Shown: positions 33,820-57,875, numbered from the stretch's first letter. The stretch is 64,000 bases of DNA from a virus (IMGVR_UViG_3300028563_000012:38535-102534), one strand, 5' to 3'. Translations and numbers: made by a program. The notes: generated by a model from the sequence alone, not told the origin.

Positions 33820-33846
33820 GCCTAAGAGTTTAGCCGCAGTCGCGGC
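33820..33846 (-). promoter_or_regulatory. Putative leaderless promoter
   Basis: TAAACT 7 nt before ATG, no SD; GCCGC/GCGGC hairpin just upstream; no clear -35. Confidence 0.35.
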
Positions 33847-37505: not shown

Positions 37506-38981
37506 TCACATCAGACCAGGCTCTGATCGCCGCTTTTTCTTGGCACGGCGCTTTGACGTCTTGATGGCCAAATTCAAAGCGTCAAACAAGTCATCATAGC
37601 GGTGGTGCGGGAATAGCACAAGGTGTTCGATGAGATGTGACATGTTGCGCCTGAAAAACACCTTCTGATTCTCAAACAATGGTGACAAGTTCTTGGCTTC
37701 CGTCACCTTGTCCTTCAGGGTGATGATGGCGACGGCGTTGATGTGCGGGAAGTCCTTTTTGACGTTGTAGAATTGCGCTTTTTGGTAGGCGTTGGACTCG
37801 ATTCCAACTCTGATGCACTCGTTGTCATCGTAGAAATCTGCCACTGCTGCTGTCTGTTTCGGGTATGACAGCTGCTTCTCATAATACGCCAAGACGTAGA
37901 TGTTGCCGAGCTTGTCGATCCCGACGGCCACCATGGCAAACATGTCGGCCTCATCCTCTTCAGAAATCATCAAGTCAACCCCGGCATAATGCGCGATGCT
38001 GCCCCACGGGATGTCCTTGTCATCGATGACTTGGCAGTCGTCAATGCTGAAGATGCTGCCCTTCATGACATCCGTATTCAGCATGTACTGAGAGTTGAAG
38101 CGGATGATGCCGCCGCGGCGGAGGGTTGCGACCTTGTCCTGTGTGAATCCCAAGCTATTCGGACGCACTTCACCATTGGGAAGAAGGATCGGGATGATCA
38201 GCGTCTGTGGGCCCTCAAGCTCACCGCCGGTGTCGTCGTCTTGGCGCTTGGAAAGGTGCCCGTGCAAATCCATGTGGTGAAAGCGCGTGCCCTTGATGTT
38301 CAGCGAGCCGATGAACGGATCCGATGGGATGGGTTGCTTCAACGTCGGAAGCAACATCTTGTAGAACCAGTTCAGCATTTTCTCACGCTGGTAAAGCGTG
38401 CGGCTGTTTTCCTCGTCCACCAAGTCGTCAGCATCGATGATGTCATAGTGCTTCGACGCAACTGCGCCTTCGATGCCGATGGTGTTGATTGACGGTTCTT
38501 TCGATGGCTGGGTGCGGCCGGCAACCTCAATTTCGGTATCAGACCACAACGACTTCCCAACGTAGTTGCCAAACAACCGGTGCAACATCTCGTTGGTCTC
38601 GAATTGCTGCTTGATTTCCTTCAACATGTCAGCAGCGTTGTTGCCTGTCTTTGATGCGATCAGGATCGACCGATTTGGGTTCAACAGCAGCTGAAAGATG
38701 TCCCACGACACTGTGGCTATTGTGGTTTTTCCAGACCCGCGCCAAACCAACGTCTGGCACCAGTTGCCTCGCCAACGATACTGGTGGTTCAGCATCTCCA
38801 AGTGGTGCGGATCAACCCGATACCCCAACACCACTTCGGCAAGAATGTCCACCCTGTGGCCGATCAAGATCAGCCGGCGGATCCACTCATGGTACAAGCT
38901 TTTGTGCTTGTCATACAACTCCAGCAACTCGCGTCGGTCCAAGCTCTGGAGTTGCTTGACGCTAATTCGTTCGTGGGACAT
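37506..38981 (-). CDS. terL: Terminase large subunit
   Basis: RGSGKTT Walker A, IIDADDL Walker B, GTRFH, GVDL, DDLFDA nuclease motif. Confidence 0.92.
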   Translation of the reverse strand: MSHERISVKQLQSLDRRELLELYDKHKSLYHEWIRRLILIGHRVDILAEVVLGYRVDPHHLEMLNHQYRWRGNWCQTLVWRGSGKTTIATVSWDIFQLLLNPNRSILIASKTGNNAADMLKEIKQQFETNEMLHRLFGNYVGKSLWSDTEIEVAGRTQPSKEPSINTIGIEGAVASKHYDIIDADDLVDEENSRTLYQREKMLNWFYKMLLPTLKQPIPSDPFIGSLNIKGTRFHHMDLHGHLSKRQDDDTGGELEGPQTLIIPILLPNGEVRPNSLGFTQDKVATLRRGGIIRFNSQYMLNTDVMKGSIFSIDDCQVIDDKDIPWGSIAHYAGVDLMISEEDEADMFAMVAVGIDKLGNIYVLAYYEKQLSYPKQTAAVADFYDDNECIRVGIESNAYQKAQFYNVKKDFPHINAVAIITLKDKVTEAKNLSPLFENQKVFFRRNMSHLIEHLVLFPHHRYDDLFDALNLAIKTSKRRAKKKRRSEPGLM

Positions 38982-42410: not shown

Positions 42411-42447
42411 TGCTGTCGATTATACGCTCGACAGCTTTACATCTCAA
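42411..42447 (-). promoter_or_regulatory. Sigma70-consensus late-operon promoter with palindrome
   Basis: TTGAGA (42442-47)-17nt-TATAAT (42419-24), ATG 8 nt downstream; GCTGTCGA/TCGACAGC arms at 42412-19 and 42428-35. Confidence 0.7.
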
Positions 42448-42995
42448 CCGAGAGCAGCCAACAACAATGAGTACGGCGCCTTGTCAATTTCGTCGCCAAA
42501 GCACGTCCATCCTGGCCGTTGCTGGCGGGCGAACAATTCAACGTAGGGGCCTGGATAGAGCCTTTGAACAATGCGGTAAAAGCGATCCGGCTTGGCGGAG
42601 TGCTGCTTTGGCTTGGGCGCGAAGAACACGCTGCGCTGCTTCATGTCATTGCGAGTCGGGCTGCCACGTGTGCAAATCAAGCACACTTCATGAGCATTAC
42701 GGACTTGGTGCCCCATGCCCGTGTACAACCGGCCATTGCCTGCCATCTTCACCCACACCATTTCGGACTTCTGATTGAATCCCCAAGCACGGGCGACGTC
42801 CAACGCTTCTTGCTGCATGGCAGCAACACGCCAAAGCAACAAGCGTGAGTTGTCCTCCATGGGCGGGATCATGAAGTTCATGATGTCTTTCAACTTCATG
42901 CACTTGTAGTGCTTCGCTGCCCCGCGGCCGCCGCCGGGCAAGCTGTCGCCAAACAACCACGCAGGGTCGGCAACCAATGTGCGAAACTTCGTCAT
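42444..42995 (-). CDS. MT-A70 family N6-adenine methyltransferase
   Basis: LVADPAW, AWGF, WVK, HSAKP, ELFAR..RPGW..FGDE. Confidence 0.85.
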   Translation of the reverse strand: MTKFRTLVADPAWLFGDSLPGGGRGAAKHYKCMKLKDIMNFMIPPMEDNSRLLLWRVAAMQQEALDVARAWGFNQKSEMVWVKMAGNGRLYTGMGHQVRNAHEVCLICTRGSPTRNDMKQRSVFFAPKPKQHSAKPDRFYRIVQRLYPGPYVELFARQQRPGWTCFGDEIDKAPYSLLLAALG

Positions 42996-45293: not shown

Positions 45294-45521
45294 TTACTCA
45301 ATGGCACAAAGTTCTTGAGTCGAAGTCAGCTCATCACAGAAAATCGGACGTGTGGCCCGCTTGTTCTCGATTTGGTAGTTGTCGTTCACGGCAGGCGCGC
45401 CGTCGAAGCAACCACCGACGCGCGTCTCAACCGTGAAGCCGTCCTCACAAAACGCAGCGGCATAGCAGCCGTCAACGATTGGAAGTTCTTGTGTGATTCG
45501 GTTGGGGTTGGAAGCGCGCAT
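45294..45521 (-). CDS. Hypothetical protein, first gene after repeat copy 1
   Basis: ATG lies at the end of the repeat; no SD. Confidence 0.5.
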   Translation of the reverse strand: MRASNPNRITQELPIVDGCYAAAFCEDGFTVETRVGGCFDGAPAVNDNYQIENKRATRPIFCDELTSTQELCAIE

Positions 45522-45739
45522 GATGTAGAGACTCTTATGCGAGAATCAGGCCGAAATGGTGAAATGGGATTTATGGCACTTAGCATGGCAATAATGCTAT
45601 CAGCTACGAAAACTTTACGTGGTGGAAGGCGCATGCTAGTTGGCAAGAATGCCAAAATGCCTTACCTTCCACCACAATCGGTCAAGCGCCGTAAAACGTC
45701 GCCATCTCATCCAAAGCGACGAAAAACGGCGCCATCAAA
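45519..45739 (-). repeat. Structured intergenic repeat, copy 1 (hairpins + putative promoter)
   Basis: Near-identical to 51457-51677 and 57414-57622 apart from a 61-nt central segment. Confidence 0.95.
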
Positions 45740-46711
45740 CTATGGTGAACCGATCCCTTGCTTGTAAAGCGTCTGCCAATACGACGCTGCGCGTGACGTG
45801 TTGTCGATCTGCAAGTCATCAGCAAAAAATGTAAGCAGAGGATCCGCGGTATCCCCGGCCGGTTGCCCTATGACCCAGCGGCCGTGATTCCCGTATTGGA
45901 TGGCCCCGGTCTGCGGCTTCACACCGATGAGCTGCCCGTTGTAGTACCAACGCACTTCAGCTCCGTCATACGTGATGGCAAAATGGACCCAAGTGAACAA
46001 CGGGATGATGTGAACGTTCTGCCAACTCAGCCAGTTGTCCTGATAGCCGGCGGTTTGCACAACAGCTGAAATGTTACCGTTGCTGACGCCGATGAAAGGG
46101 CTGATCGAGCGGTAGTTGGGTCCAAAACCGTCAGCGTTCCAAGTCTTTTGAACACCTTGCAGATTCCCCGATGTTGGATAAGATGTCAACATCACCCAAA
46201 CGCTTGCGCTCATCGGATAGGCCGGTTCCGCCGCGGCCGCATCACTTTGAACACGGCCGCCCACCACGGACACAGCGTTGTTGAAGACACCTGGCGCGCC
46301 GATGAGCGCAACTCCAGATGTGGTCATATTGCCTGCGCCGCTAACATCATTGGCCAAGTAGGATGCACCGATGAATTCAGCAAAACCCCAACGCGAAATG
46401 ACGTTGTTGTCCAGCGGCATGCGCGAGCGCCAAGGGGTTGGTGAGGGTGCCACCGCGGCCGACTTGAATGTGCCGTCGCCCGCCAGGAACAACGATCCAT
46501 CACCGGGCAACACCGGGCAGAGCCCTGGTGACGCCGCCGATGCAGGCGCAAGCCGCGGATCGCTAGTCAGCACAACCTGATCAGGGCTGAGTGCGCAAAT
46601 CGCACATTGCCCAACCCCGCCATCATCTTGTGCGTATGCCAAGTTGTTGGCGCCCAATAGCGCCAACGCGGCAAACAAACCGAAAATCCTGATAATTCCA
46701 ACTTTTCTCAT
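45740..46711 (-). CDS. Signal-peptide LamG domain protein
   Basis: GGAGG RBS; MRKVGII...LAYA signal; SASVWV, WVHFAITYDG, YYNG. Confidence 0.75.
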   Translation of the reverse strand: MRKVGIIRIFGLFAALALLGANNLAYAQDDGGVGQCAICALSPDQVVLTSDPRLAPASAASPGLCPVLPGDGSLFLAGDGTFKSAAVAPSPTPWRSRMPLDNNVISRWGFAEFIGASYLANDVSGAGNMTTSGVALIGAPGVFNNAVSVVGGRVQSDAAAAEPAYPMSASVWVMLTSYPTSGNLQGVQKTWNADGFGPNYRSISPFIGVSNGNISAVVQTAGYQDNWLSWQNVHIIPLFTWVHFAITYDGAEVRWYYNGQLIGVKPQTGAIQYGNHGRWVIGQPAGDTADPLLTFFADDLQIDNTSRAASYWQTLYKQGIGSP

Positions 46712-46836
46712 GATATCCTCCAAGGAACGTTGCCAGCACACTGGCATGTTGTCATTCGGGTGTGCCCGTTGCAATGGTTACTTTGCGATTGACAGCAACT
46801 CATTGTTTTCCCATGACAATGGTGCCGGTTGTGATT

Positions 46837-47295
46837 TCAGCTCGACCAATGATTCACCGGATTGAGCAACCTGATTGCCCTCATCTTTGCGCGGCCTTCG
46901 GGTGTGCGCGACCAATGAGCATCACCGCGTGGGCGCCGCTCAGGATGGGTTCGCGATCCGCTCCTATCGCCCGTGGCCATCCTTCCCTTGGAGAGGGCAT
47001 CTTGGATGTTGTCTTTCTGCGTTCCTTCGAACAGATGATCATCGTTGACGCACGACCGGACGTCGCATTTGTGAAGCCCACATGGCAACGGGTATCGACC
47101 GTGCTTCAGGAAGAACGCGAAGCGGTGGGCTTGGACATGTTTGCCACTTCCGGTTTTGAATGAGCCGTATCCTCTGCCCTTGAAAATGGCGCCCGTCCAC
47201 AGCCAACATCTCGTCTTCAGCACCGGATGGGTCGGGCCATGTTTGTTGACTTGAGACCAGAAGCGATCAATTTCAGGCTTGGCTTTTCTTCCCAT
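46837..47295 (-). CDS. HNH endonuclease
   Basis: CWLWTG, AHRFAF, LHKCDVRSCVNDDHL..GTQKDN. Confidence 0.9.
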   Translation of the reverse strand: MGRKAKPEIDRFWSQVNKHGPTHPVLKTRCWLWTGAIFKGRGYGSFKTGSGKHVQAHRFAFFLKHGRYPLPCGLHKCDVRSCVNDDHLFEGTQKDNIQDALSKGRMATGDRSGSRTHPERRPRGDAHWSRTPEGRAKMRAIRLLNPVNHWSS

Positions 47296-47298
47296 GAT

Positions 47299-48594
47299 CT
47301 ATCGGTCATCACGCCAACGCACCCAATTCGGGTGGCGCAACTTCCCGGCCTTGGTGGCGTTTTGGAAATCAACCTCACACCAACGATCAATCAACTGGTC
47401 CCGAATGGCCCACCATTCTTGTCGCTGCTGGATGGTTATCCCGCCGCCAACATCTGTCTCGGATCCGTTCTTGCGCCGCACGTGCAAGCTGCCGAGCATG
47501 CCCTTGAACGCGCCTTCACCTTCGTACGTGCCGATGACTTGGACATCTTCGTTATCCTTGGGCTTGAACTTCAGCCAATTCGGCGACTCGCCCCAATGGT
47601 AACCGGCGTCAGCACGCTTCCAAATCGCACCTTCAAAGGGGTACAGCATGGCAGCATACTTGTCACGAACACCATTCATCTCGGCGAACGTGGTGCCCTT
47701 CACCATCAAAATCGACTCGATGATGCGGATCCGCTCGTTTGGCTCGATGTTGAAGAGCAAGTCGCGCTTGCGCTCGATGAGCGGCCGGGTGCTGCGCCTG
47801 TCCCATTCGCCGCGGTCGATGAAATCAAACACCGTGTAGCACAGGCCACGGTCATCCTGGCCGCGCTTCGCCATCTTCCCAGCGCTGTCTTCAAAGTTGT
47901 GGGGCGCGAAGCATTCCCCGTCCACCACCCACAGACCTAAATCGACCATACACCCAAGCATCTCCATCAACTTGCCAACACCTTGCATCTCCTGACCACC
48001 GGACGTCATTGGGCGACCGTCGTACACAGTGAGGCGCCAGCCATCCATCTTGGGCTCGCGATAGCCTTCGACCGACAAGTCATGCTTCTCTTCTGCCAGG
48101 ATTGCCTTGGCCACGGCCCAAGCTTCGATCAGGCCGGGAAGGACCTTGTTGGCGGTCTTGAGACTCGCACCACACACCAGGTCCTTGTCGATGATGCGGA
48201 GCGCCCATTTCACATCTTGTGAAGACGGGGCCCGAGCGATGATGCTGTCAAGCAACATCGCTGCTGCTGAACCTGTGTGCTTGCGATCCTTGAGTGCCAG
48301 CAACGCTTTGCGAAGCAACTGCCACCAGACGGAGCGCTTATCTTGTGGCATGCTTGGCAAACCTTCGATGCCTTGCTCACGGCTCACAAGATGTGGTGAT
48401 ACCGCCTTGGACGTGATGTTGAAAACTGAATACGGGTCCAAAGCCATCCGGATGAATTCCTTGGTCACTGGATCCGCGGTTGCCAGCAAGCGCTCCTTTT
48501 CGAGCCTTCCCGGCGCGGCCTCAATGGCGTCCATCAATTTGGTGTTCACTTCTTGCCGCTTTCGTGCGGAATCTGTTTGATCACCTTTTGCCAT
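47299..48594 (-). CDS. ATP-dependent DNA ligase
   Basis: EPKMDGWR (motif I), VDGE, VFD, EGAIWK, WLKFKP, LRHP. Confidence 0.92.
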   Translation of the reverse strand: MAKGDQTDSARKRQEVNTKLMDAIEAAPGRLEKERLLATADPVTKEFIRMALDPYSVFNITSKAVSPHLVSREQGIEGLPSMPQDKRSVWWQLLRKALLALKDRKHTGSAAAMLLDSIIARAPSSQDVKWALRIIDKDLVCGASLKTANKVLPGLIEAWAVAKAILAEEKHDLSVEGYREPKMDGWRLTVYDGRPMTSGGQEMQGVGKLMEMLGCMVDLGLWVVDGECFAPHNFEDSAGKMAKRGQDDRGLCYTVFDFIDRGEWDRRSTRPLIERKRDLLFNIEPNERIRIIESILMVKGTTFAEMNGVRDKYAAMLYPFEGAIWKRADAGYHWGESPNWLKFKPKDNEDVQVIGTYEGEGAFKGMLGSLHVRRKNGSETDVGGGITIQQRQEWWAIRDQLIDRWCEVDFQNATKAGKLRHPNWVRWRDDR

Positions 48595-48986
48595 CCGCTA
48601 TGTGCGTCACGCACATCCGTGGCCTTGCCTGGTTTCAACTTCTCATGGGCCTCAGCCCACCCGGCTGGCGGGCTCCAACCGTTGTCCAATGCGCTCTTCT
48701 CCCAAGGTTTGATTTTCTTGGGCCGCGGCGGCATTTCACCGCCCCATCCGCAATGATAGCACACAGCATCATAACAAGGATTGCTGAATTCAACACCGTG
48801 CGTCGGGTCTGCGCCATCGTCTTCGCACTCGCAAAGCAAGCCTTCGCAAGACCCTGGCTTGTGATCCATGTCGTCAGCACGGATGTTGCGCGGCTTGGCA
48901 CCTTTACGACCACAACCGTGGGCTGCTGCGCCGCAATTTGGGCACTTCCAACGTGGATCCGATGTTTCTTGTTCTTGGCTCATCAT
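48546..48986 (-). CDS. Cys-rich hypothetical protein
   Basis: CPNC, CEGLLCEC, CYHC. Confidence 0.5.
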   Translation of the reverse strand: MMSQEQETSDPRWKCPNCGAAAHGCGRKGAKPRNIRADDMDHKPGSCEGLLCECEDDGADPTHGVEFSNPCYDAVCYHCGWGGEMPPRPKKIKPWEKSALDNGWSPPAGWAEAHEKLKPGKATDVRDAHSGWQKVIKQIPHESGKK

Positions 48987-49213
48987 TTCTTGGGCTCCAG
49001 CTGTTTCTGCTTCTGTGTGAATGCGCGGCCGATTTCCACCTTGTGGGCGGCATTAATCACCATCTGGTCGACATCGAATGCTTCCACGGCGCCGTGGCAA
49101 AATACCCAATATGTGATGGTTTTTGTGAACAAACTCCTGTCACATTCCACCCGGTCCACCGGTTTGTTGCAGACGTCGCAGATTGGCAGCTCTTCCGGCG
49201 CAACCATTGTCAC
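48983..49213 (-). CDS. Small Zn-ribbon-like protein
   Basis: CDVCNKPV...CHG; translational coupling. Confidence 0.5.
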   Translation of the reverse strand: MTMVAPEELPICDVCNKPVDRVECDRSLFTKTITYWVFCHGAVEAFDVDQMVINAAHKVEIGRAFTQKQKQLEPKK

Positions 49214-49431
49214 TTCACCTTGTTATATGGTTGTTCTGGGTGGTAGTTGCGTCTGAAATAGCTCGCCCGCATCCACTCCCAATCCTTGGGATCGTCACAG
49301 TCCAAGCGAATCAACCACCCACGTCCTGCCCTGCTGACTTGCCCCAGCATCCCCACGGCAACCCTGGATTGCGATCCTTCGTTTCTAGCCCACCTCGTGT
49401 TGAGCTTGAACTTGTGGCGCTTCACGGTCAC
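49210..49431 (-). CDS. Hypothetical protein
   Basis: GTGA coupling at both ends. Confidence 0.45.
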   Translation of the reverse strand: MTVKRHKFKLNTRWARNEGSQSRVAVGMLGQVSRAGRGWLIRLDCDDPKDWEWMRASYFRRNYHPEQPYNKVK

Positions 49432-49896
49432 CCCTTCGGCCCGAACACCGTGGACAACTTGCTCATCGCATTGACGCGCTTGAGCTGTTCGAGCGCGGCC
49501 GCAACTTGTGGGTGTTGGCGCATCAACTCAACACACCCAGTCAATTCACCAACGGCGTTGTCCAAACGCTCACGCTCATCGGTTGGCACATTGACCTGCA
49601 CGAATTGGCGGTGATTGCTACGCTGAGGCCTGGGGCTGTGATTGAATTTTGGGTCCACGGTTCTCCTCTTCAACTGGCTGTTATTTGTGCGATGTAGCGA
49701 GCATTGGCCACCACGATGGCGACCGGAGTGTTGGTTGCGATGATGCGTTGGTAGGGCGGCTGGCGTTGCGTCCTCCAAAATGCCACGGCTTGTTTGGCGT
49801 CTTCTGCGTCGACAAGCCCAGCAATCACCCAGCGTTCGCCGCTAATCCACAATTCACCTTTGGGCGATGCTTGGCCGATGGCAAAAGTGATCATGA

Positions 49897-50079
49897 TCAG
49901 CCTGCGATAGGCGCCAAGCGGACGCAAGCGCCGCAGATGCACTCAGCATCCGGGTTGAGCCGCGGATCAACAAACAAGACGAGCGCGCCGCATGAGGCGC
50001 ACTTTGTCCACTTTGAGAAAATGACCATCGTGCGTGCCAAATTTCCATCTTGGACTTGCGTTCCTATTGAAACTTGCAT
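49897..50079 (-). CDS. Small Cys-rich protein
   Basis: CASC...CGAC; GAGG RBS. Confidence 0.45.
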   Translation of the reverse strand: MQVSIGTQVQDGNLARTMVIFSKWTKCASCGALVLFVDPRLNPDAECICGACVRLAPIAG

Positions 50080-50094
50080 CGGTTCCTCGCTAGT

Positions 50095-51459
50095 TCAGTT
50101 GTGGGTTGGGACCAGGATCCCGTTGTCAGCCAGGGCGTGGGTCGCATGATTCGACGCACAAGTGTTGACCTTTGTGTTGAATAACTTGACAAATTCAGTT
50201 GTTGTGTTGTATGGCCACATCCAAGCGGGCAGGATGCCGCCCGGAAGGGCGGCTTTAGCAATGCAACCATTGCTTGGCACCGAGGCCAGCGCTTGATTGA
50301 CGTTGGAAACAAATTCACTTGTGTCAGCAATCGGCCAATTGTAACGCGTACTTGACGCATTGACTTGCAATGCTGTGAATGCGCCCGCTGCCAGGATGGC
50401 CGCAACCAGCTTGGTCGACTTTGCGAGCGCCGGAACTGTCAGCGATAGCACAACCAGAAGATACATGGAATTCTCAACATTGTAACGGCCGGCGGCTGAG
50501 AATTCGATGCCATTGGCCGCACGGCGCAACGCCACCATCGTCACCCCCGCCGTGAAAAATGCAACATAACCCGCCCAAACGGCAACAGTCTTACGATTCA
50601 AAGCACGGAAGCAAAACACCCCGGACAAGGCCGCTAAGACAACAACAAGTGCCCAAAAATTGGGAAGCATGTTGGCGGCATGGAGAGAAGCGCGCAGGCC
50701 GACCATTGGCAAAAGCGTCCCGTCAACGAGCGTGAATCGCAAAAACATCCAAATCTGGCCCATGCTCACAGCTGAGGCTTGCGGGGTTTGCATGGTTGCT
50801 AGGATGGCCGCAGCCAAAATCCCAAACGCAGCAACCCAGCGCATACTAGAAACGACCACGAAGATCGACTTGCGGGTGTTGAGCGTCCACAGGATCGGAG
50901 CAAACAAACAAGGGGTAATCAGCGCGCGGCCCGAAAACATGATGGCGATGAAGAACGCAAGCCCTGCAACAGCACGCCCGTTACGCGTTGGGCCGCTATT
51001 GCCAAGCGGGCCCACCAAGCAAACCAAGCACACCAAGGAAAATAACACCGACAGCGAGATATGGCAAGTTGATGACCACCACAGCTGGGAGTGTAACATC
51101 TGAAGCGATGATGCTTGGATCAGCGTGAACCCGAAGGTGCGCAAAGCTGATTGCCCGGCACGGCGCAGCAACACCCAAAAAATCGCGGTGGTGGCCAAGG
51201 CGAAAACTCCGGTGATGGCCGCGTACACGTGAATTGACATGCCGCCGATGTGAAATGCGCTCCATTGGAGAAGACGGAACGCCGGGACGAATTGCCCGAA
51301 GACAGGCATGGTGAGATACTGCCAAGTCAACCCAAGCTTTTGGACTTGTTCGAAGTTCAAAAAATCATCATATGCGAACGTCAAGCGTGCAAGACGGACG
51401 CACAACATCGCGGCGTGCGCCGCCAGTGCCAAGATGAACAATTTGCGTGAAGCCTTCAT
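50095..51459 (-). CDS. Polytopic membrane protein, GT-C-like glycosyltransferase candidate
   Basis: About 11 TM segments; YDDF after TM1, GQFVPAFRL, GRY; first gene after repeat copy 2. Confidence 0.55.
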   Translation of the reverse strand: MKASRKLFILALAAHAAMLCVRLARLTFAYDDFLNFEQVQKLGLTWQYLTMPVFGQFVPAFRLLQWSAFHIGGMSIHVYAAITGVFALATTAIFWVLLRRAGQSALRTFGFTLIQASSLQMLHSQLWWSSTCHISLSVLFSLVCLVCLVGPLGNSGPTRNGRAVAGLAFFIAIMFSGRALITPCLFAPILWTLNTRKSIFVVVSSMRWVAAFGILAAAILATMQTPQASAVSMGQIWMFLRFTLVDGTLLPMVGLRASLHAANMLPNFWALVVVLAALSGVFCFRALNRKTVAVWAGYVAFFTAGVTMVALRRAANGIEFSAAGRYNVENSMYLLVVLSLTVPALAKSTKLVAAILAAGAFTALQVNASSTRYNWPIADTSEFVSNVNQALASVPSNGCIAKAALPGGILPAWMWPYNTTTEFVKLFNTKVNTCASNHATHALADNGILVPTHN

Positions 51460-51677
51460 GATGTAGAGACTCTTATGCGAGAATCAGGCCGAAATGGTGA
51501 AATGGGATTTATGGCACTTAGCATGGCAATAATGCTATCAGCTACGAAAACTTTACGTGGCTGTTTGCCATCAGTGTTGGCAAAGATGCGCTTCGCGCAT
51601 GAAATGCCAAAGGAATTGGCAAAGCGCCGTAAAACGTCGCCATCTCGCTGAAAGCGACGAAAAACGGCGCCATCAAA
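51457..51677 (-). repeat. Structured intergenic repeat, copy 2
   Basis: See copy 1. Confidence 0.95.
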
Positions 51678-52641
51678 ACAACCTTAGTTGGGTCAGACTT
51701 GTGCTCATCCGCTTGCGCATGTCACCATGGGCCGGGAAGCCGATGATGGACTTGCGGTTGTGAAGCGCGCACAATTTGCAAGTCGAGCAAGACAACTTCG
51801 ACGCTCCGAGCGCGGGGCAGACCACGACGTGGCGACCGGCCGGTGTCTTCACCTTGGGTGGCGAGCGCTCAGGCAGCACAACCACCACAGGCGCGATCCC
51901 AAGAGCAGCAAGTTGGTCTGCCTCATCCAAATCATCCGCCGATAGATTGATGGTGAAGCCAAACGTGTTGCAGGTATTCACGATGATACGGTTGGCCGGG
52001 TTGTCGAGCATCGGCTTGTGGGTGTACGTGAAGCCGCGCTTGCCTTGGCTGGCAAGCGTCAGCGCAAACAACTTGTCGCCGTCGATGGCATTCCCATCGC
52101 CAGGTAGGTCGCCGGCCTCGTTGTGACGCCAAAGTTGTCCCGGCGGTAACTTCTCCACCATGGAAATGAAGCGATCCCATGACATGCCTGAGGCTGGATT
52201 CGTAGACAAGCGGCGCCAATGCAGTGCCATGAAGTGTTGCTCTGCGTAGCAACCGTTGTTCAACCACGGGCAAACGGGCGGGCATGTATTCGGGCTGGTC
52301 ATGCTGACCGGAATCGGGCCCGTCTTGCGGTTGTTGGATGCCAGGTTGAACTTCACTCGCAACTCGCAATCAACCCGGATCTGCCGCCGCGTCAACGATG
52401 GCCCGCGCACCTTCGCCCTGCAAGAAGAGCAGCGCTGCACCAAGCGCTTGCCGTTGTCGAATTCGCCGACGGGTTTCCATGTGAAGCATTCCCGGCAACG
52501 TAGCTCTGAAATCCCGCGGCCTTGGCATGTGGCGCAAGGCACGACGATGACAACGAGAGATGGTGGCAGCCGTTTCATCCCGCCGTTGCAAGCCTTGCAT
52601 GGGCGCGAGTAACTGCGATGCTTCAGCTCATTTTCCAGCAC
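51673..52641 (-). CDS. Conserved phage Cys-cluster protein (Gp88/DUF7227-like) with N-terminal Zn fingers
   Basis: NRKTGPIPVS..TCPPVCP....GCYA, WRHNEAGD, FTYTH, INLSAD, VCPA, CSTCKLC, GFPAHG. Confidence 0.6.
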   Translation of the reverse strand: MLENELKHRSYSRPCKACNGGMKRLPPSLVVIVVPCATCQGRGISELRCRECFTWKPVGEFDNGKRLVQRCSSCRAKVRGPSLTRRQIRVDCELRVKFNLASNNRKTGPIPVSMTSPNTCPPVCPWLNNGCYAEQHFMALHWRRLSTNPASGMSWDRFISMVEKLPPGQLWRHNEAGDLPGDGNAIDGDKLFALTLASQGKRGFTYTHKPMLDNPANRIIVNTCNTFGFTINLSADDLDEADQLAALGIAPVVVVLPERSPPKVKTPAGRHVVVCPALGASKLSCSTCKLCALHNRKSIIGFPAHGDMRKRMSTSLTQLRLF

Positions 52642-52837
52642 GCTTGGTCTCAGCCACGCGATGAAACATGGTAATATCGCCCATCGCCTTGTGATACTCG
52701 GGCTTGGCAGCTGAACGTCTGACGTACATCACACCTTCAACGATGACGATGTCAGGTGTTGGATCTTCGATTGCCAAGTCAGCTTGGATTTTGAATGACC
52801 CGCTATCTGACTTGATGGTGAATATTCTGATCGGCAT
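52628..52837 (-). CDS. Hypothetical protein
   Basis: ORF in operon. Confidence 0.45.
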   Translation of the reverse strand: MPIRIFTIKSDSGSFKIQADLAIEDPTPDIVIVEGVMYVRRSAAKPEYHKAMGDITMFHRVAETKRAGK

Positions 52838-52841
52838 GACG

Positions 52842-53321
52842 TTAGCCTAGCTTGCCGCCGCGGTAGCGCATACAATCACAACCCATTGTGACAAAGCCGT
52901 GCCCTGCGCCGTCGAATTGACCGCCATGCCCTTCACGCGAGTCTCCGCAATGGCAAATCTCGGGATCGATTTGCTGCAAGCATCCGGGGCATATTTGGCG
53001 CACCTCCAAGTTGCTGATGGATACATCTGCGGCGCGTTCCTCCATTTCACAGAAATCGCGCAACCGTTGCAACGTATCGTCTTTCCACGGCTTACGGGCG
53101 TCAATTATGTTCTTGATCTGGCGTAGCGTTTCACGACGCGCCTTCAGACCTGTCACGGTAACAACATCAGACCCTGGGATTGCTCCCATGCCATCAAGCA
53201 AGCCAATAACTGCCGCTGCTGCTTTTTGGCAATCGGTCGACACGACATCATGCGCTGGGATGATTCCGTTTATGATGTGCGCTATGGTGTCAGTTAGATG
53301 CTGGTGTGTGCTGTTGCCCAT
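52842..53321 (-). CDS. Hypothetical protein with Cys/His-rich C-terminus
   Basis: CPGC..IDPEICHCGD...MGCDC. Confidence 0.5.
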   Translation of the reverse strand: MGNSTHQHLTDTIAHIINGIIPAHDVVSTDCQKAAAAVIGLLDGMGAIPGSDVVTVTGLKARRETLRQIKNIIDARKPWKDDTLQRLRDFCEMEERAADVSISNLEVRQICPGCLQQIDPEICHCGDSREGHGGQFDGAGHGFVTMGCDCMRYRGGKLG

Positions 53322-53736
53322 TTGCTTTCACCTTTGCCTTCGCCCTTCTCTTTGCCCGGTTGCGTTTTGCCCACAACGGACTCCAATGGCGTTGTCCGGA
53401 AAGGATCCGCTTCACCGACGTCAACCCTAACTCCACCCGAGCAGCAATGCGCTCCAAGTTCCAGTGCATGCCGCGCAATCTGCAGACCAACATGGCCTTT
53501 TCCAAGGTCACAAAACCTGTCTTGCGTGGAGCGCGGCCGCCCTTGACCTGCTTGTAGCTCCACCCCCGGACGATGGCTTGCACGGTCTTGATGGCCAGGT
53601 TGAAGCGCTCGGCAAGCTCCCACTCGTGCCAACCTTCCTCGCTGTAACGCTTCAGCAGATCTGCGGCTTCATCGTCCGTCAACTTGGGCGGGATGGGTGT
53701 CAACCTTTTGGCTTGGCTTGCTTTCTGGCTTCCCAT
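53290..53736 (-). CDS. Tandem-HTH DNA-binding protein (paralog 1)
   Basis: ELAERFNLAIKTVQAIVRG and IAARVELGLTSVKRILSG; ends WSPLW. Confidence 0.65.
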   Translation of the reverse strand: MGSQKASQAKRLTPIPPKLTDDEAADLLKRYSEEGWHEWELAERFNLAIKTVQAIVRGWSYKQVKGGRAPRKTGFVTLEKAMLVCRLRGMHWNLERIAARVELGLTSVKRILSGQRHWSPLWAKRNRAKRRAKAKVKANGQQHTPASN

Positions 53737-54035
53737 TGTTGCACATAGGGTTGCGGCGTTTCGAGCATGGTTTTGAACACGGCGATTGCGGGTGCTGAGA
53801 AGTCACCGGCTTGCACAGTGCGAGTGAACAAATCCAGCGCGTGTTGCAAGCCTTCCTGGTAATGAACGGCGTGCAGGTGGTCCATCTCGCCAAGGCATTT
53901 ACGACAACACAACTTGCCAAACAAGATTCGGTTCGGATCGACCGCTTCGAAGACATGTGGGCCGGGGCACGACTTCAGCCGCTCAAGGTTGGCTCGCACT
54001 TCTTTCAGGATCTGGGCTGAGTCGATTCTCATCAT
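53700..54035 (-). CDS. Hypothetical protein
   Basis: CPGPHVF...CRKC; ATGA coupling. Confidence 0.5.
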   Translation of the reverse strand: MMRIDSAQILKEVRANLERLKSCPGPHVFEAVDPNRILFGKLCCRKCLGEMDHLHAVHYQEGLQHALDLFTRTVQAGDFSAPAIAVFKTMLETPQPYVQQWEARKQAKPKG

Positions 54036-55486
54036 ACTCCTTGCGGCGTCAAGGTTATGCCGTGGGTGTGTTCTTCGATTTCGCCTTGGGCCAAGCTGGA
54101 AAGCATATCCCATTTGATCACACTATGGATATGCCCGGTGGCATCCTTCTGCGTGATCCCGTATCCCATGCGATCCACAACAGCAACATGAACATGGTCG
54201 CATTCAACGGTCGTGATGAATTCAACACGCTTGTTGGGTTGCCCCTTTTGACGCTTGATCGTCTCGCTGCGCAAGTCTTCACGCCTTCCAGATTTGGCAT
54301 CGGTGAAGCATTTGAATGAACAGCCGAAGGGCACCACCACCTTTCCATCCGCCAGGCTGCTAGGCGTTTGGGGTTTCGACGGTGGGCTAATTACCGTTGG
54401 TGGTGGTGCCACTTCGACATCTTTTTCACGCCAGGCCAGCGGATGCTGTGGCGCTACGTACGTGATCGCTGGCTCGGACGGAAGTGTGACGGCAGGCTTT
54501 CCGGGTTGGGGTGTCGCCACGACATCCAGGCAAAACGTTGGGGTTTCGTCGCGAAATGGTTGGATTTTATCCTTCAACCACAGCCCCCAATTCTTTCCAT
54601 CGGGATCCTTCACGAAGAATTCCCCATTGGCATCTGGAAGTGCGACCACTGAACACCGCACATGTGTGCCATCAAAGCGGCGGAAAAACACGGTATCACC
54701 GAATGTGAAGCCGCAACCTGTGTCTTTTGGCGGCACCTCTGCTTCCTGATCTGAACAATCTTCACATGGGAAATCTTGTTTCACGATCCCTTTGACCACA
54801 GGGCAGTTTTGACCACCGTACTTGCAACCGTGCTCCTTGCAACAATGGGATCGGTGTGACCCATCTGGCCCATCTTTGACTTGTTTGGCCTCCCAATCCA
54901 ACTTTGCCTGGACCAGGGAGATGTTGAGCTTGGAGCACGTCAAATACACGATTTGCTTGGTGGTCCCCAAACGCTCTGCCAACTCACGCGCGGTGTTGAC
55001 ACCTTCGTCAAGCAACAGCAAGATTTGCTCACCACGCTTGGCGATTAATGTCTGCTTGGCCTCCGATACATGGAACTTGGGCACGGAGCGCTCAGCAATC
55101 ATCTCTTTTGGTGACCGCTTCTTCTGGTTGTCCAGCACCTCTTGGATGTCTGCAGCAGTCGCCGCAGCCGCGGCTGTCCCCATGGACTTCCCCATGCCCA
55201 AATTGGCTTCGGCCTCTTGTTCTTCATGCATTTCTGCTATCACCGCTCGCATCATGCCGGGCTTCAGCAATGGCGTGACAACAACAGGTTTGTCGCACTT
55301 CGACAGCAACTCTGCGGCCTGCTGAAGGGTGTGAATTTCTTCCATCAACTTGTCGATGGCGCGTTGAATCACATCCAATGCACTTTGGAGCCTTGCGTCT
55401 GGCTTCTTGCACACCTCCTTGAGGACGTCAGCCGCCTCTTCCGGGGTGTCCGTCTCCACGTTTATTCCGTCAACTTTGAGTCGCAT
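54032..55486 (-). CDS. Multidomain protein: coiled coil, HTH, Cys/His domain, His-rich C-terminus
   Basis: TARELAERLGTTKQIVY; HCCKEHGCKYG..CPV...PCEDC; HVH...GHIH...EHTH. Confidence 0.55.
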   Translation of the reverse strand: MRLKVDGINVETDTPEEAADVLKEVCKKPDARLQSALDVIQRAIDKLMEEIHTLQQAAELLSKCDKPVVVTPLLKPGMMRAVIAEMHEEQEAEANLGMGKSMGTAAAAATAADIQEVLDNQKKRSPKEMIAERSVPKFHVSEAKQTLIAKRGEQILLLLDEGVNTARELAERLGTTKQIVYLTCSKLNISLVQAKLDWEAKQVKDGPDGSHRSHCCKEHGCKYGGQNCPVVKGIVKQDFPCEDCSDQEAEVPPKDTGCGFTFGDTVFFRRFDGTHVRCSVVALPDANGEFFVKDPDGKNWGLWLKDKIQPFRDETPTFCLDVVATPQPGKPAVTLPSEPAITYVAPQHPLAWREKDVEVAPPPTVISPPSKPQTPSSLADGKVVVPFGCSFKCFTDAKSGRREDLRSETIKRQKGQPNKRVEFITTVECDHVHVAVVDRMGYGITQKDATGHIHSVIKWDMLSSLAQGEIEEHTHGITLTPQGV

Positions 55487-55815
55487 CTGTTTGTCTTTCC
55501 TTTGACGTGCATGGGCAACGCGATTGCCCCGATCCTTGATGATTTCATTGACTTGGGTAACTTCTCATACCAACGATCACCACGGCACAACGCACTCCCA
55601 TCTTCAAATCCGGCATAGCGTGGACAGTCGCGGGCCCTTGTCACCCAGTTGTTCGGGTTGGACACGCGCCCATTTGAACACATTGCAACCCCGCCGTCTG
55701 TGTACGGGCAAGAGCGTGTTGTGACTTCCATCTCCCAATTGCGAATCGCAGCGATGTTGTTGTGAAGAGCGACGAATGCCTTGTGATCTGCCCAAGCAAC
55801 AACAGTATTTCCCAT
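55462..55815 (-). CDS. Hypothetical protein
   Basis: Start inferred at MGNTVV. Confidence 0.4.
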   Translation of the reverse strand: MGNTVVAWADHKAFVALHNNIAAIRNWEMEVTTRSCPYTDGGVAMCSNGRVSNPNNWVTRARDCPRYAGFEDGSALCRGDRWYEKLPKSMKSSRIGAIALPMHVKGKTNRCDSKLTE

Positions 55816-55847
55816 CGGTCGAATTGGCCTCAATCCGGTTCTTTGGA

Positions 55848-56465
55848 CTATCGACGCTTGAGCATTCCCCGCAGCAGATCCCTGGACCAACAACCCATCC
55901 AGCCGCCAGGCATGAGACGGCGCGCGTACTTGCGCTGCAACAACACCATTTCCTTGAGGTTATCAGAGCAGATGTCAGGCCAAATGTCAAAATAGACAGT
56001 GCTGAACTTGGGCACATCCGGCTTCCAGTCGAAGATGCTGGCGTTGACAATGCGCAAGCGGCCGGAGTCCTGGTGCGGCTTCAGGGTTGGTGAGATCAGG
56101 TCGATGACGCTCTGCAAGACTTCAACCACGGTCACCCTGGTCACTTCGGGCTTGTTCAAAATCGGATGGAGAATCATACCAAGCCCGAGCCCTGCAATCA
56201 ACACCTCACCGTATGCCTTGCGCACCGCCGCGATGTTGGTGTTGCGTTCCAGGCCGGTGTCCGACATCACGAGCGAGCCGCCGATGAGCAAGCGCGCGTA
56301 CTTGCCCGGCAGCACATACCCCAATGGCCGCAATGAGCTCATGCGACTTTCACTCTCTGACACCTCGAAATGGTCAACCCTGACACTGCCGTCAGGGCTT
56401 TGGCATTCCGGCACGACCTCAAACATCTTCGGGAATGTGCTTGGATACATCATCAACCTTTCCAA
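55848..56465 (-). CDS. Class I SAM-binding protein (spermidine synthase-like methyltransferase fold)
   Basis: GEVLIAGLGLGM, VTVVE, YFDIW. Confidence 0.8.
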   Translation of the reverse strand: MERLMMYPSTFPKMFEVVPECQSPDGSVRVDHFEVSESESRMSSLRPLGYVLPGKYARLLIGGSLVMSDTGLERNTNIAAVRKAYGEVLIAGLGLGMILHPILNKPEVTRVTVVEVLQSVIDLISPTLKPHQDSGRLRIVNASIFDWKPDVPKFSTVYFDIWPDICSDNLKEMVLLQRKYARRLMPGGWMGCWSRDLLRGMLKRR

Positions 56466-56722
56466 TAATTCATGAGCGCCGATGGGATGCGAATCACGGT
56501 CTGGCCCGTGGCGATGACGCGCACTTCCCGATATACCATGGCAAGTTGCTTCGTGCCATCAATGACCTTGAGATGCGTCGCAGCTGCTGCGTGGCGGAAT
56601 AGGCGTCCACACGGTTGTACTTCGATGAAAATCATTGCCCGGTTGCCTGCGGCCTTGGCAATCGCGTCCAGTGAAATGTGCCCAATGGTTGTGTGGTTGT
56701 CGTCTTGGAATTCAGCAATCAT
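56453..56722 (-). CDS. Hypothetical protein
   Basis: ORF in operon. Confidence 0.45.
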   Translation of the reverse strand: MIAEFQDDNHTTIGHISLDAIAKAAGNRAMIFIEVQPCGRLFRHAAAATHLKVIDGTKQLAMVYREVRVIATGQTVIRIPSALMNYWKG

Positions 56723-56730
56723 GCCGTAGG

Positions 56731-56928
56731 TTAGTTTGAGGCGCCACGAAGCGCTTTGATCACAATCTCAGCTTGGGTCATCATCAAGTTGCCGTTTCCA
56801 ACAAGATCCACAAGCATTTCGAACACTCTGCGACGCCCTGCAGCATGAAGTGCCTTGACAACTTCGGGCGACAACGTGTTCATTGGGATGACTTGGAACT
56901 TGGTCATTGGCGGTGTTGTGATTTTCAT
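56731..56928 (-). CDS. Hypothetical protein
   Basis: ATGA coupling. Confidence 0.45.
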   Translation of the reverse strand: MKITTPPMTKFQVIPMNTLSPEVVKALHAAGRRRVFEMLVDLVGNGNLMMTQAEIVIKALRGASN

Positions 56929-57233
56929 GATTGCGCGATCCTCAAGGTTTGCTCGATGGCGTCAAGCTCGGCTGACGTGTGGCGACTCGACAAAGCCGCC
57001 GTACGGACCAAACAACCCTCCTTGACACTGCCGGACATCGTGCTGTCAGCGCCAAACTCCGCATAGAAACAAGCAAAAAGCTTGCCATTGATATCTTCTT
57101 TGCGCGCTGAGATGCTGGTCACCTTTGCCCAGTTTCCGAATGCGTCAAGAACCAAGCCGCCGATCTCCAACTTTTCAATGTAGTCGCGACTCGGGATGAA
57201 ATAGACTTGGCCGTGAACCAATCCGTGCGCCAT
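56925..57233 (-). CDS. Hypothetical protein
   Basis: GGAGG RBS before MAHGLV. Confidence 0.5.
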   Translation of the reverse strand: MAHGLVHGQVYFIPSRDYIEKLEIGGLVLDAFGNWAKVTSISARKEDINGKLFACFYAEFGADSTMSGSVKEGCLVRTAALSSRHTSAELDAIEQTLRIAQS

Positions 57234-57235
57234 GA

Positions 57236-57415
57236 TTAAGCCTCCACCGCGGCGAGATTGACGAGCGTGCGTGAGCGATCCGACTTCGATACGAAGCTGA
57301 AACACACATCATCTTGGTCGGCGATGTAGGACTGAACCGCAGCTTCCAGCTCACTGGAATCGCGGATGGTTGGGATCTCGTGAAGTGTGATGGCCGTGTT
57401 TCGTCGCGTTGTCAT
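57236..57415 (-). CDS. 59-aa leaderless ORF after repeat copy 3
   Basis: MTTRRNTAITLHEIP...AAVEA; below the ORF-track cutoff. Confidence 0.5.
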   Translation of the reverse strand: MTTRRNTAITLHEIPTIRDSSELEAAVQSYIADQDDVCFSFVSKSDRSRTLVNLAAVEA

Positions 57416-57622
57416 GTAGAGACTCTTATGCGAGAATCAGGCCGAAATGGTGAAATGGGAATTCACACACTTAGCATGGCAATAATGCTATCAGCTACGA
57501 AAACTTTACGTGGCTGTTTGCCATCAGTGTTGGCAAAGATGCGCTTCGCGCATGAAATGCCAAAGGAATTGGCAAAGCGCCGTAAAACGTCGCCATCTCA
57601 TCCAAAGCGACGAAAAACGGCG
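57414..57622 (-). repeat. Structured intergenic repeat, copy 3
   Basis: See copy 1. Confidence 0.95.
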
Positions 57623-57623
57623 G

Positions 57624-57875
57624 TCAAGGATTGGTGGCTTCGATTTGCTCACGCAACTTGAGGATCCGGTCGAAGCAATCGGGGCAGACGCCCATGGTGC
57701 AAACTGAATCCTTGTACGATGTGAAGCAAATCGTGCAGTCATGCACAGCCCAACGGTTGTACCTGTCCTCGCACGTACTCTGAAATGCCCGGATGAGGCC
57801 TGAGAGCAAATCGCGGTCGATGACCAATGGTTGTTGCTTTACTGCTTCGGGCCTCGGGCTGTCGTCGGTGCACAT
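57624..57875 (-). CDS. Small Cys-rich protein
   Basis: AAAGGA RBS within the 28-bp direct repeat; CTIC...CPDC. Confidence 0.5.
   Translation of the reverse strand: MCTDDSPRPEAVKQQPLVIDRDLLSGLIRAFQSTCEDRYNRWAVHDCTICFTSYKDSVCTMGVCPDCFDRILKLREQIEATNP

Follow-up and report, generated by a model that had tools for sequence, protein, structure and literature searches.

A five-copy intergenic hairpin cassette in an uncultured phage: a candidate PeSL-like expression unit that lacks a sigma70 promoter

What function does a repeated, hairpin-rich cassette serve when it fills the gaps between phage genes? The cassette belongs to a 102.5-kb uncultured phage and was first seen in the window, a 64,000-nt stretch of its genome (IMGVR_UViG_3300028563_000012:38535-102534). 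A preliminary description had reported three copies of about 209 nt running from stop codon to ATG on the coding strand, and a repeat search of the window confirms them as 209-nt repeats at 45523-45731 (c1), 51461-51669 (c2), and 57414-57622 (c3), with c1 and c3 being 80% and 96% identical to c2. The genome as a whole contains five copies rather than three, the other two (g1 and g2) lying beyond the window at genome positions 31620-31827 and 33632-33828. All five are co-oriented, and every one spans the gap from a stop codon to the next start codon with the minus strand as the coding strand. On that strand, the whole c1 cassette occupies 45519-45742 between the upstream TAG stop (45740-45742) and the downstream ATG (45519-45521). 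c2 occupies 51457-51675 between a TGA stop (51673-51675) and an ATG (51457-51459), flanked by a DUF7227 gene upstream and the gene for a 454-aa membrane-like protein downstream. c3 occupies 57413-57626 between a TGA stop (57624-57626) and an ATG (57413-57415). The reading we favor, at a probability of roughly 0.58, is that the cassette is an intergenic, five-copy unit resembling the promoter-early stem-loop (PeSL) cassettes of T4-type phages, which combines a terminator or insulator with a promoter and leader and is read by a route other than sigma70.

Four of the copies share 96-100% identity, while c1 is an outlier with a different central 61 nt. The invariant length first ascribed to the cassette does not hold: one loop is shorter by 1 nt in g1 and g2 than in the other copies, g2 is missing the final 14 nt and carries its own GGAGG ribosome-binding site instead, and the element of L140, the sole homologue outside this phage, measures 211 nt. 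L140 was retrieved with a 21-mer from a gene-proximal box, and that part of the box conservation is therefore ascertained; the conservation maps rest on this one outside homologue. Its cassette is only about 80% identical, and its adjacent gene has diverged similarly (73-75% at the nucleotide level). Near-identity among the copies, set beside a homologue as diverged as its gene, points to concerted evolution. The alleles at the 5′ edge and in the loop occur among the copies in all four combinations, which requires recombination. At the L140 junction the upstream gene is a DUF7227 gene, like the one at c2, and the downstream open reading frame (ORF) matches, over its first ~19 nt, the gene that follows c3. 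Gene conversion probably keeps the copies almost identical, and the cassettes are probably sites at which flanking genes are exchanged between phages.

Near-identical copies, mosaic alleles, flanking genes shuffled relative to L140, and an HNH endonuclease gene two genes upstream of c1 would also suit an element that is selfish or serves recombination, for example a MITE-like repeat or the target of a site-specific or homing enzyme, and that spread into intergenic gaps without needing a regulatory role. Such an origin is very unlikely. Terminal inverted repeats and target-site duplications are absent, the ends are unrelated, and the flanks share only the stop codon. Each copy is gene-oriented with an exact stop-to-start fit, a genome search finds neither partial copies elsewhere nor copies inside genes, and related phages fill the same slots with unrelated cassettes that have clear promoters. 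That the cassette encodes a small protein is barely credible. A 58-aa plus-strand ORF (MRESGRNGEMG...) is open in 5/5 copies, even through the replaced segment of c1, but three 1-nt indels throw it into different frames in L140. A 32-aa minus-strand ORF stops after 7 codons in c1 and shifts frame after 19 codons in L140. L140 thus rules out a coding function unless it is a dead copy.

The 5′ part of the cassette is dominated by two large hairpins. Hairpin A (minus strand; c2 51624-51670, with counterparts at c1 45686-45732 and c3 57577-57621) consists of an outer stem GCGCCGT/ACGGCGC, a T-run internal loop, an inner stem CGTCGC(U)/(G)GCGACG, and a variable loop of 11-13 nt, and is followed by TTT. 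In c2 its folding energy is -26.8 kcal/mol (z -5.15). L140 keeps the inner stem and its T-run and does not keep the outer stem. Hairpin A is not picked up by an intrinsic-terminator scan that requires a GC-rich stem, a loop of 3-8 nt, and no fewer than 5 T in an 8-nt stretch: its loop, at 11-13 nt, is too large, and its T-run, of 3-4 T with 4 past the inner stem, is too short. Hairpin A is a likely terminator or protector of the 3′ end.

The central hairpin follows (minus strand; c2 51564-51623) and is identical in c3 (57517-57576), g1, and g2. It is built from three nested stems, TTTGCCA/TGGCAAA, TTGGCA/TGCCAA, and ATGCGC/GCGCAT, and folds at -23.5 kcal/mol (z -4.68). The alternative version in c1 (45619-45675, minus strand) has an outer stem of 11-12 bp (GTGGTGGAAGG/CCTTCCACCAC) and an inner stem TTGGCA/TGCCAA, and folds at -31.9 kcal/mol (z -5.92). 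The central 61 nt of c1 show 41% ungapped identity to the other version, yet they form a 57-nt hairpin. The preliminary description was correct that the c1 center differs and still folds. The two sequences are not unrelated, however: they align better than 99.5% of shuffles (p = 0.005). That a long hairpin forms here from either of two different sequences is evidence that the hairpin itself matters.

Two smaller dyads lie closer to the gene. The near-palindrome ACGTAAAGTTTTCGT (minus strand; c1 45606-45620, c2 51544-51558, c3 57497-57511) is a putative functional site. It becomes the perfect palindrome ACGAAAAGTTTTCGT in L140, and its half-site TTTTCGT is found again in two places, the 5′ arm of hairpin A and the distal box of the related phage G003. 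The small hairpin TAGCAT-TATTGCC-ATGCTA (minus strand; c1 45581-45599, c2 51519-51537, c3 57472-57490) falls in the least conserved stretch of the cassette, and L140 has a shifted hairpin, CGTTG-TGGC-CAACG, in its place. Hairpin A, the central hairpin, and the small hairpin all fold as first described, with z-scores of -4.1 to -5.9 and an equally good fold in 0/200 shuffles.

Stability of this order raises the possibility that the cassette acts as RNA within a read-through polycistronic transcript that has no promoter here, its long central hairpin serving either as an RNase III-type processing site or as a stand-alone structured ncRNA, with hairpin A shielding the new 3′ end. An imperfect hairpin of ~20 bp arises at one site from two different sequences, and the L140 central segment has 9-10 changes in loops and only 1 in a stem. 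G-U pairs (hairpin A pair 7 and c1 stem pair 12) and the T-runs on both arms of hairpin A belong to the coding strand only. The opposite strand nevertheless folds about equally well. None of the 52 predicted pairs shows a compensatory change, the lone double-changed pair stemming from the replaced segment of c1, and the RNAalifold covariation term is positive (+2.31; six sequences, of which four are almost the same). L140 breaks the outer stem of hairpin A, and both that stem and the small hairpin are out of register there. Rfam 15 yields no match at the gathering score across the whole window, and at E up to 10 it gives only chance-level matches. The preliminary claim that structure is under selection is partly supported: it retains the loop bias of the L140 changes and lacks covariation, and its suggested check for an RNA family returned neither covariation nor an Rfam match. 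A purely RNA-level element would also leave unexplained why conservation ends with a box 14 nt before the ATG and why relatives carry promoters in the same slots. On balance this reading is improbable. A plain terminator-promoter unit, which the preliminary description had named as contrary to its proposal, is what relatives hold in these slots; the cassette itself is not plain, as it lacks a sigma70 promoter, has an extra 60-nt hairpin, and contains a conserved box ending ~14 nt before the ATG. These departures leave room for an RNA-level role of the hairpins.

The gene-proximal conserved box CATTTCGGCCTGATTCTCGCATA (minus strand; c1 45536-45558, c2 51474-51496, c3 57427-57449) is 23 nt long and does not vary among the five copies or in L140, where 21 nt of it were the search pattern and are ascertained. 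In g2 and L140, identity ends 0-2 nt past the box. This is where the conserved part of a promoter would end, and the box is accordingly placed as a candidate promoter core. The 14 nt directly preceding the ATG (AGAGTCTCTACAT...; c2 51460-51473, minus strand) are different in L140, and in g2 alone a GGAGG leader replaces them; every copy has a start codon. In the other four copies these 14 nt contain no canonical Shine-Dalgarno site, with UAAG at best, and since these copies meet the ATG without a good site, a very short leader is suggested. A putative promoter was part of the preliminary description, but a scan for the sigma70 type (-35/-10) finds none in the cassette. Genome-wide, there are 4 sigma70 consensus sites (at least 10/12, coding strand) in this phage versus 12 in its relative G002, which represents background numbers and no enrichment. 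The putative cassette promoter is not of the sigma70 type, and neither the sigma70 scan nor a comparison with sigma54 sites assigns it to a known class.

Six related phages of ~100 kb (G001-G006), whose capsids are 53-58% identical to that of this phage, reveal what otherwise occupies these positions. G001, G002, G004, and G005 have their own multi-copy cassettes comprising a stem-loop, a TTGACT/TCGACT-N17-TATAAT-like promoter, GGAG, and ATG, whereas G006 has a single-copy unit of a stem-loop, a sigma70-type promoter, and a Shine-Dalgarno site after its Toprim gene. The slot directly after the Toprim gene contains a promoter unit in 6/6 relatives (the repeated cassette in G001, G002, G004, and G005, the single unit in G006, and a box-type cassette in G003) and copy g2 in this phage. 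In G002 and G003 a cassette also occupies a second slot, located upstream of a conserved 252-aa gene. G001 has cassettes ~300-600 nt either side of this slot, and in this phage g1 lies upstream of the 252-aa gene with two small genes intervening. The units of G001, G002, G004, G005, and G006 thus come from the same phage family, fill the same slots, span stop to start, and are multi-copy in 4/5 cases. They differ in being ~100 nt long with sigma70-type promoters and GGAG sites, and they share no sequence with this cassette.

G003 (IMGVR_UViG_3300010429_000409) is the sixth relative. Its five cassettes are ~200-250 nt long and rich in inverted repeats (z -8.6), with large repeats upstream and, where conservation ends, a box CGGnnTGnTTnTCGCATA close to the gene. 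As in this phage, the sigma70 consensus is absent, the TTTTCGT half-site is present, and the same slots are filled. The proximal box CGGTATG[GC]TTTTCGCATA, at the 3′ edge of conservation, matches the box of this phage at 14/18 positions. This agreement has P of about 2e-4 when the test is anchored and is not significant when any offset is allowed (85/200 resamples equal it). What the two phages have in common is a non-sigma70 box, CGG-N8-TCGCATA, and the half-sites. G003 differs in carrying a distal box GGTACGAAAAAAGGTTACAATT rather than the hairpins of this phage and, after the proximal box, a variable leader with GGAGG; the remaining sequence is unrelated.

One candidate for the reader of such a box is the enhancer-dependent sigma54 holoenzyme, with GG at -24, GC at -12, and upstream palindromes that bind a host AAA+ activator. 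CGGCCTGATTCTCGCA has GG-N10-GC, and both dinucleotides and their spacing are kept in the G003 box. Both phages have conserved inverted repeats ~50-190 nt upstream of the box, and -10/-35 elements are absent. Transcription would start 2-5 nt before the ATG, and a start ~12 nt past the GC suits the layout, with the Shine-Dalgarno site absent in four copies and leader-borne in g2 and G003. The box, however, scores only 8/12 against TGGCACG-N4-TTGCW, and 228 of 1165 genomic GG-N10-GC sites (20%) score equally well or better. The usual T before GG is C in both phages, and genes for sigma54 and for an activator ATPase are missing from this phage (G000) and from G003 alike. An activator supplied by the host would have to function from the onset of infection. 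The flanking dyads have unequal spacers (5 and 7 nt) and are absent from c1, and a nested hairpin fits them better than tandem dimer sites. A sigma54 promoter is therefore unlikely.

Copy number, placement, hairpins, mosaic alleles, slot equivalence, and the lack of a sigma70 consensus are observations; termination, promoter activity, and the transcription start site are inferred. In the favored PeSL-like reading, the cassettes would partition the long runs of co-directional replication and accessory genes into separate expression units. At the 5′ end, the GC-rich hairpin A with its U-runs and then the imperfect hairpin of ~60 nt may together act on the 3′ end of the transcript arriving from upstream, by ending, pausing, or protecting it, and may insulate the unit that follows. 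The 3′ ~100 nt would serve as the start signal for expression of the next gene, with the 23-nt box ending ~14 nt before the ATG as its core. The box would probably be read by a form of host RNA polymerase, or a helper, other than the sigma70 type. A host reader is probable because the cassettes fill slots where relatives carry sigma70-type, likely early, promoter units. A further conjecture is that this phage and the distantly related G003 have replaced the sigma70 (probably early) cassettes of their family and begin infection through alternative host transcription, which is rather doubtful. If true, the alternative route could involve a sigma54-type holoenzyme that depends on an enhancer, or a polymerase-recruiting factor not yet described; the hairpins or palindromes would act as the control platform upstream, and the mRNAs would have almost no leader.

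Two known phage systems resemble the cassette. Phage T7 has RNase III processing sites between its early genes. These R sites are likewise imperfect hairpins of ~20 bp with internal loops in the gaps of a same-strand gene array. The cassette differs in showing no covariation and in having a conserved box with a promoter-like boundary after the hairpins. The other parallel is with the PeSL cassettes of the T4-type phages phi1 and RB49, whose defining features are a sigma70 promoter matching the consensus and a Shine-Dalgarno site (Arbiol et al. 2010, PMC2839356). Both are multi-copy intergenic units that bridge two neighboring genes from stop codon to start codon, and both combine a stable stem-loop with expression signals for the downstream gene, although these signals are candidates here (PMC2839356). 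Small, variable genes adjoin the units, and recombination between copies shuffles gene modules (PMC2839356). The cassette is thus of a known, PeSL-like kind. It is unusual in that the ordinary bacterial promoter is absent, the sigma70 promoter and Shine-Dalgarno site both being missing in 4/5 copies, and in that it numbers only five copies of ~209 nt, each with two large hairpins upstream of its putative start signal.

The 209-nt element occurs in five copies in the genome of the phage under study (G000), whose IMG/VR record of 102,534 bp is rated complete; the window covers bases 38535-102534 of this record. A repeat search places three copies in the window (copies 1 to 3: 45523-45731, 51461-51669, and 57414-57622), and a whole-genome search adds two outside it, g1 and g2 (genome 31620-31827 and 33632-33828; loci L002 and L003), while sensitive blastn finds no partial copies elsewhere in the G000 genome. 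Nearly all genes lie on the minus strand, as do all five copies, each of which occupies the whole interval between a stop codon and an ATG. The preliminary description of the repeats was accurate in this respect, with three 209-nt copies and their hairpins confirmed. The ends of the record (genome 1-140 and 102390-102534) repeat one another over about 140 nt, which indicates circular assembly or terminal redundancy. This end region is rich in GGTGG motifs, and GGTGG also makes the outer stem of the copy 1 central hairpin.

The genes around the element are of the replication and accessory class. Those neighboring g2 and g1 encode a Toprim primase-like protein, DUF2786 and TSCPD proteins, and a weak sigma factor, with g1 sitting ahead of a gene run whose end is the sigma-like gene. 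Copy 1 is surrounded by genes for LamG, HNH endonuclease, DNA ligase, and UvrD-type helicase proteins, copy 2 by genes for a DUF7227 protein and a 454-aa membrane-like protein, and copy 3 by small ORFs of unknown function. The HNH endonuclease and LamG-domain genes (window 46837-47295 (-) and 45740-46774 (-)) lie between the DNA ligase gene and copy 1; they may be an insertion, since the related phage G001 has a cassette about 60 nt past its ligase gene. Elsewhere in the window, a minus-strand structural gene has a 9-nt periodicity (13630-13957) that looks like the collagen-like Gly-X-Y repeat of a fiber protein.

On the coding strand, the element begins with two large hairpins. Hairpin A has a folding energy of -26.8 kcal/mol, and the central hairpin has one of -23.5 kcal/mol in its common version and -31.9 kcal/mol in the alternative version of copy 1. 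Hairpin A and both central versions fold better than shuffles (z -4.7 to -5.9), as do whole units (z about -4.6), and the opposite strands of the element fold about equally well. Next come a near-palindrome, ACGTAAAGTTTTCGT, the small TAGCAT/ATGCTA hairpin, a patch of variable sequence, and a gene-proximal box of 23 nt, CATTTCGGCCTGATTCTCGCATA; a final 14 nt then lead to the ATG. The final 14 nt are without a good Shine-Dalgarno site; g2, which comes after the Toprim gene, is without them and carries a GGAGG leader of its own instead. The central 61 nt of copy 1 are 41% identical to the common version without gaps, and their alignment scores above 99.5% of shuffles, which argues that the copy 1 center is a diverged allele and not foreign sequence.

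L140, a 1,259-bp metagenome contig (JACCDR010362259.1, 1-1259) found with a 21-mer out of the box, carries the sole outside homologue found, in a gene order unlike that of G000. Its element is about 80% identical to copy 3 and measures 211 nt against 208-209 nt in G000, so that the length, once described as invariant, is similar rather than fixed. Between L140 and G000, the neighboring DUF7227 gene shares 73-75% identity at the DNA level and about 60% at the protein level. The element thus diverges between phages much as its neighbors do, yet the five G000 copies are 96-100% identical, which points to concerted evolution or recent spread. Two 5′-edge alleles combine with the hairpin A loop alleles in all four possible ways among the copies, and recombination between copies is therefore directly visible. 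In L140, the DUF7227 gene, which is upstream of copy 2 in G000, leads into the element and then into an ORF (MTTRRN...) that agrees over its first ~19 nt with the gene following copy 3; beyond this stretch the two proteins are unrelated. This mixed junction places the element at a joint of differing flanking genes, and the matching ~19 nt suggest that the conserved unit may reach a few codons into the downstream gene.

L140 retains the inner stem and T-runs of hairpin A, every arm of the central hairpin, the near-palindrome (perfect in L140), and the box, whose conservation in part reflects ascertainment, since the search pattern was drawn from this box. L140 has lost the outer stem of hairpin A and, in place of the small hairpin, has one at a shifted position. 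The proposal that selection acts on structure in the element is borne out in part: both central versions fold, and the L140 changes in the central segment fall mostly in loops (9-10, versus 1 in a stem), but RNAalifold gives no compensatory support, with a covariation term of +2.31. For the central hairpin, a nucleic-acid structure is favored over tandem protein sites, because two sequence versions each make a long imperfect hairpin and because the dyad spacers are unequal. It may act at the RNA level, as a barrier or a site of processing, or else as a platform on the DNA.

A control cassette is a likelier reading of the element than the undescribed noncoding RNA suggested initially. Rfam contains no family that matches the element at gathering score or at E-values up to 10. 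The element has no blastn match in 50,697 records of cultured phages and only chance-length matches in 18 related phage records; exact or gapped patterns from four of its parts retrieve nothing from IMG/VR, and nhmmer finds nothing in 46 DUF7227 loci. An 18-mer occurs at 25 bacterial-genome loci, close to the number expected by chance, and nhmmer extends the match past the 18-mer at none of them. Terminal inverted repeats and target duplications are absent from the element ends. Two reading frames were also considered as products of the element. A plus-strand ORF of 58 aa (window 51475-51651 (+), with the frame shared by the other copies) stays uninterrupted in each of the five, the replaced 61 nt of copy 1 included, and is broken in L140 by three single-base indels; it is thus probably a by-product of the near-identity of the copies. 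A minus-strand ORF of 32 aa was rejected, having an early stop in copy 1 and a frame change in L140.

The slots of related phages, that is, given gene junctions compared across genomes, provide the decisive evidence on the element. Neither the terminase nor a single capsid protein as query found a close IMG/VR relative. A capsid alignment as query found hundreds of relatives with 52-69% identity, many on ~100-kb contigs; an identical capsid is carried by 11 contigs, and the capsid relatives P0004 and P0008 are the closest, P0008 being carried by an 838-kb contig with a prophage. The comparison set consists of the entire genomes of six complete relatives (G001-G006). Four of these (G001, G002, G004, and G005) contain 4-10 copies apiece of intergenic cassettes of about 100 nt, each genome having its own, made up of a stem-loop with a T-run, a TTGACT/TCGACT-N17-TATAAT-like promoter, GGAG, and ATG. 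G006 has one unit with a stem-loop and TTGCCG-N17-TATGGT. The slot directly after the Toprim gene is occupied by such a unit in all six relatives and by g2 in G000. Upstream of a conserved 252-aa gene, G002 and G003 have a cassette and G000 has g1 with two small genes intervening, while in G001 cassettes lie ~300-600 nt to either side of this gene. Palindromes resembling the operators of a shared repressor overlie the promoters of some of these units: G004 cassettes (L178-L183, e.g., 38725-38835) have TCCAATTCAATTGGA in the spacer, and the G002 and G001 cassettes show inverted repeats spanning the -35 element.

The coding strand of G000 has four sigma70 consensus sites matching at least 10 of 12 positions, a background number, versus 12 in G002. 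Two sigma70-like sites in G000 reach 11/12, against about one expected by chance (an estimate, not a computed value): TTGAGA-N17-TATAAT at genome 80981 (-), in the window 42444-42447 region and just upstream of a 258-aa gene beside the packaging/structural block, and another at genome 12106 (+). Sigma70 site enrichment is likewise absent from G003, whose five long cassettes (~200-250 nt) have large inverted repeats (z -8.6) and occupy the same slots. These repeats of 22-26 bp, AATTGTAACCTTTTTTCGTACC and, about 65 nt away, its complement, enclose an inner hairpin in two copies, and all five copies share a distal box, GGTACGAAAAAAGGTTACAATT. A TTTTCGT half-site is common to this distal box and to the hairpin A 5′ arm and near-palindrome of G000, as an observation only.

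The gene-proximal box of G003, CGGTATG[GC]TTTTCGCATA, lies on the minus strand at 15217, 16688, 70104, 73156, and 85794 (loci L184-L188) and matches the G000 box at 14 of 18 positions. It stands exactly at the conservation edge and is followed by variable leaders with GGAGG and then by the ATG. The pattern CGGNNTGNTTNTCGCAT matches just these five sites and the five of G000 across the seven genomes; in 40 further relatives, the box pattern has one exact match, within a gene, and one-mismatch matches at about the control rate. Unanchored, the match between the two boxes lacks significance, being equalled in 85 of 200 resamples; anchored at the independently defined conservation edge, it has P ~2e-4. 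The two phages have no special closeness (56% identity in capsid, 42% in DNA polymerase).

The box is not a sigma70-type site, and it is the best promoter candidate in the element, because conservation stops right after it in g2, L140, and G003, its distance to the start codon is promoter-like, and the same slots are promoter slots in the relatives. Extended -10 (TGnTAGCAT), ECF-type (GCAAAC-N16-CGTA), sigma28-like, and sigma32-like readings, compared by eye, each fit only some copies or have the wrong spacing. The box contains the GG-N10-GC of sigma54 with an 8/12 consensus match, which 20% of such G000 sites equal or exceed, and neither G000 nor G003 has genes for sigma54 or its activator ATPase. 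A phage-encoded sigma factor is a less likely reader: G000 has a weak region-2 sigma gene, but this gene is downstream of g1, and sigma-like genes are present too in relatives with sigma70 cassettes. A PF00940 search for a single-subunit phage RNA polymerase was empty in G000 and also in control genomes. A box-reading factor shared only with G003 was rejected as well, the sole sizeable gene that G000 shares with it alone among the six relatives being an MT-A70 DNA methyltransferase (183 aa, window 42444-42995 (-)). Cluster names, the protein atlas, and cultured-phage capsid matches (at most 38% identity over part of the protein) identify no host. The non-sigma70 box common to G000 and G003 is the interesting residue of this comparison.

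The best-supported reading of the element is a regulatory cassette of the promoter-early stem-loop (PeSL) kind, in which the 5′ hairpins would end or pause the incoming transcript, or protect it, and the 3′ part would launch the next gene. If the box works as a promoter, it points to a transcription route overlooked by standard promoter finders and would provide a small control unit that is easily transferred. A role of the hairpins as RNA would make them a new element of RNA processing or stability in phages. In both cases, gene-order differences among relatives are explained by the recombination joints at which the cassettes lie. Large lytic phages are known to organize, insulate, and shuffle accessory genes by means of repeated terminator-promoter cassettes. 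The PeSLs of T4-type phages run from stop to start codon, combine a sigma70 promoter with a stem-loop and a Shine-Dalgarno site, and mediate modular shuffling (PMC2839356); the sigma70 cassettes of the relatives fit this published description. The same slot logic holds throughout an entire family of uncultured ~100-kb phages, and in this family the promoter part has been exchanged for something other than a sigma70 promoter.
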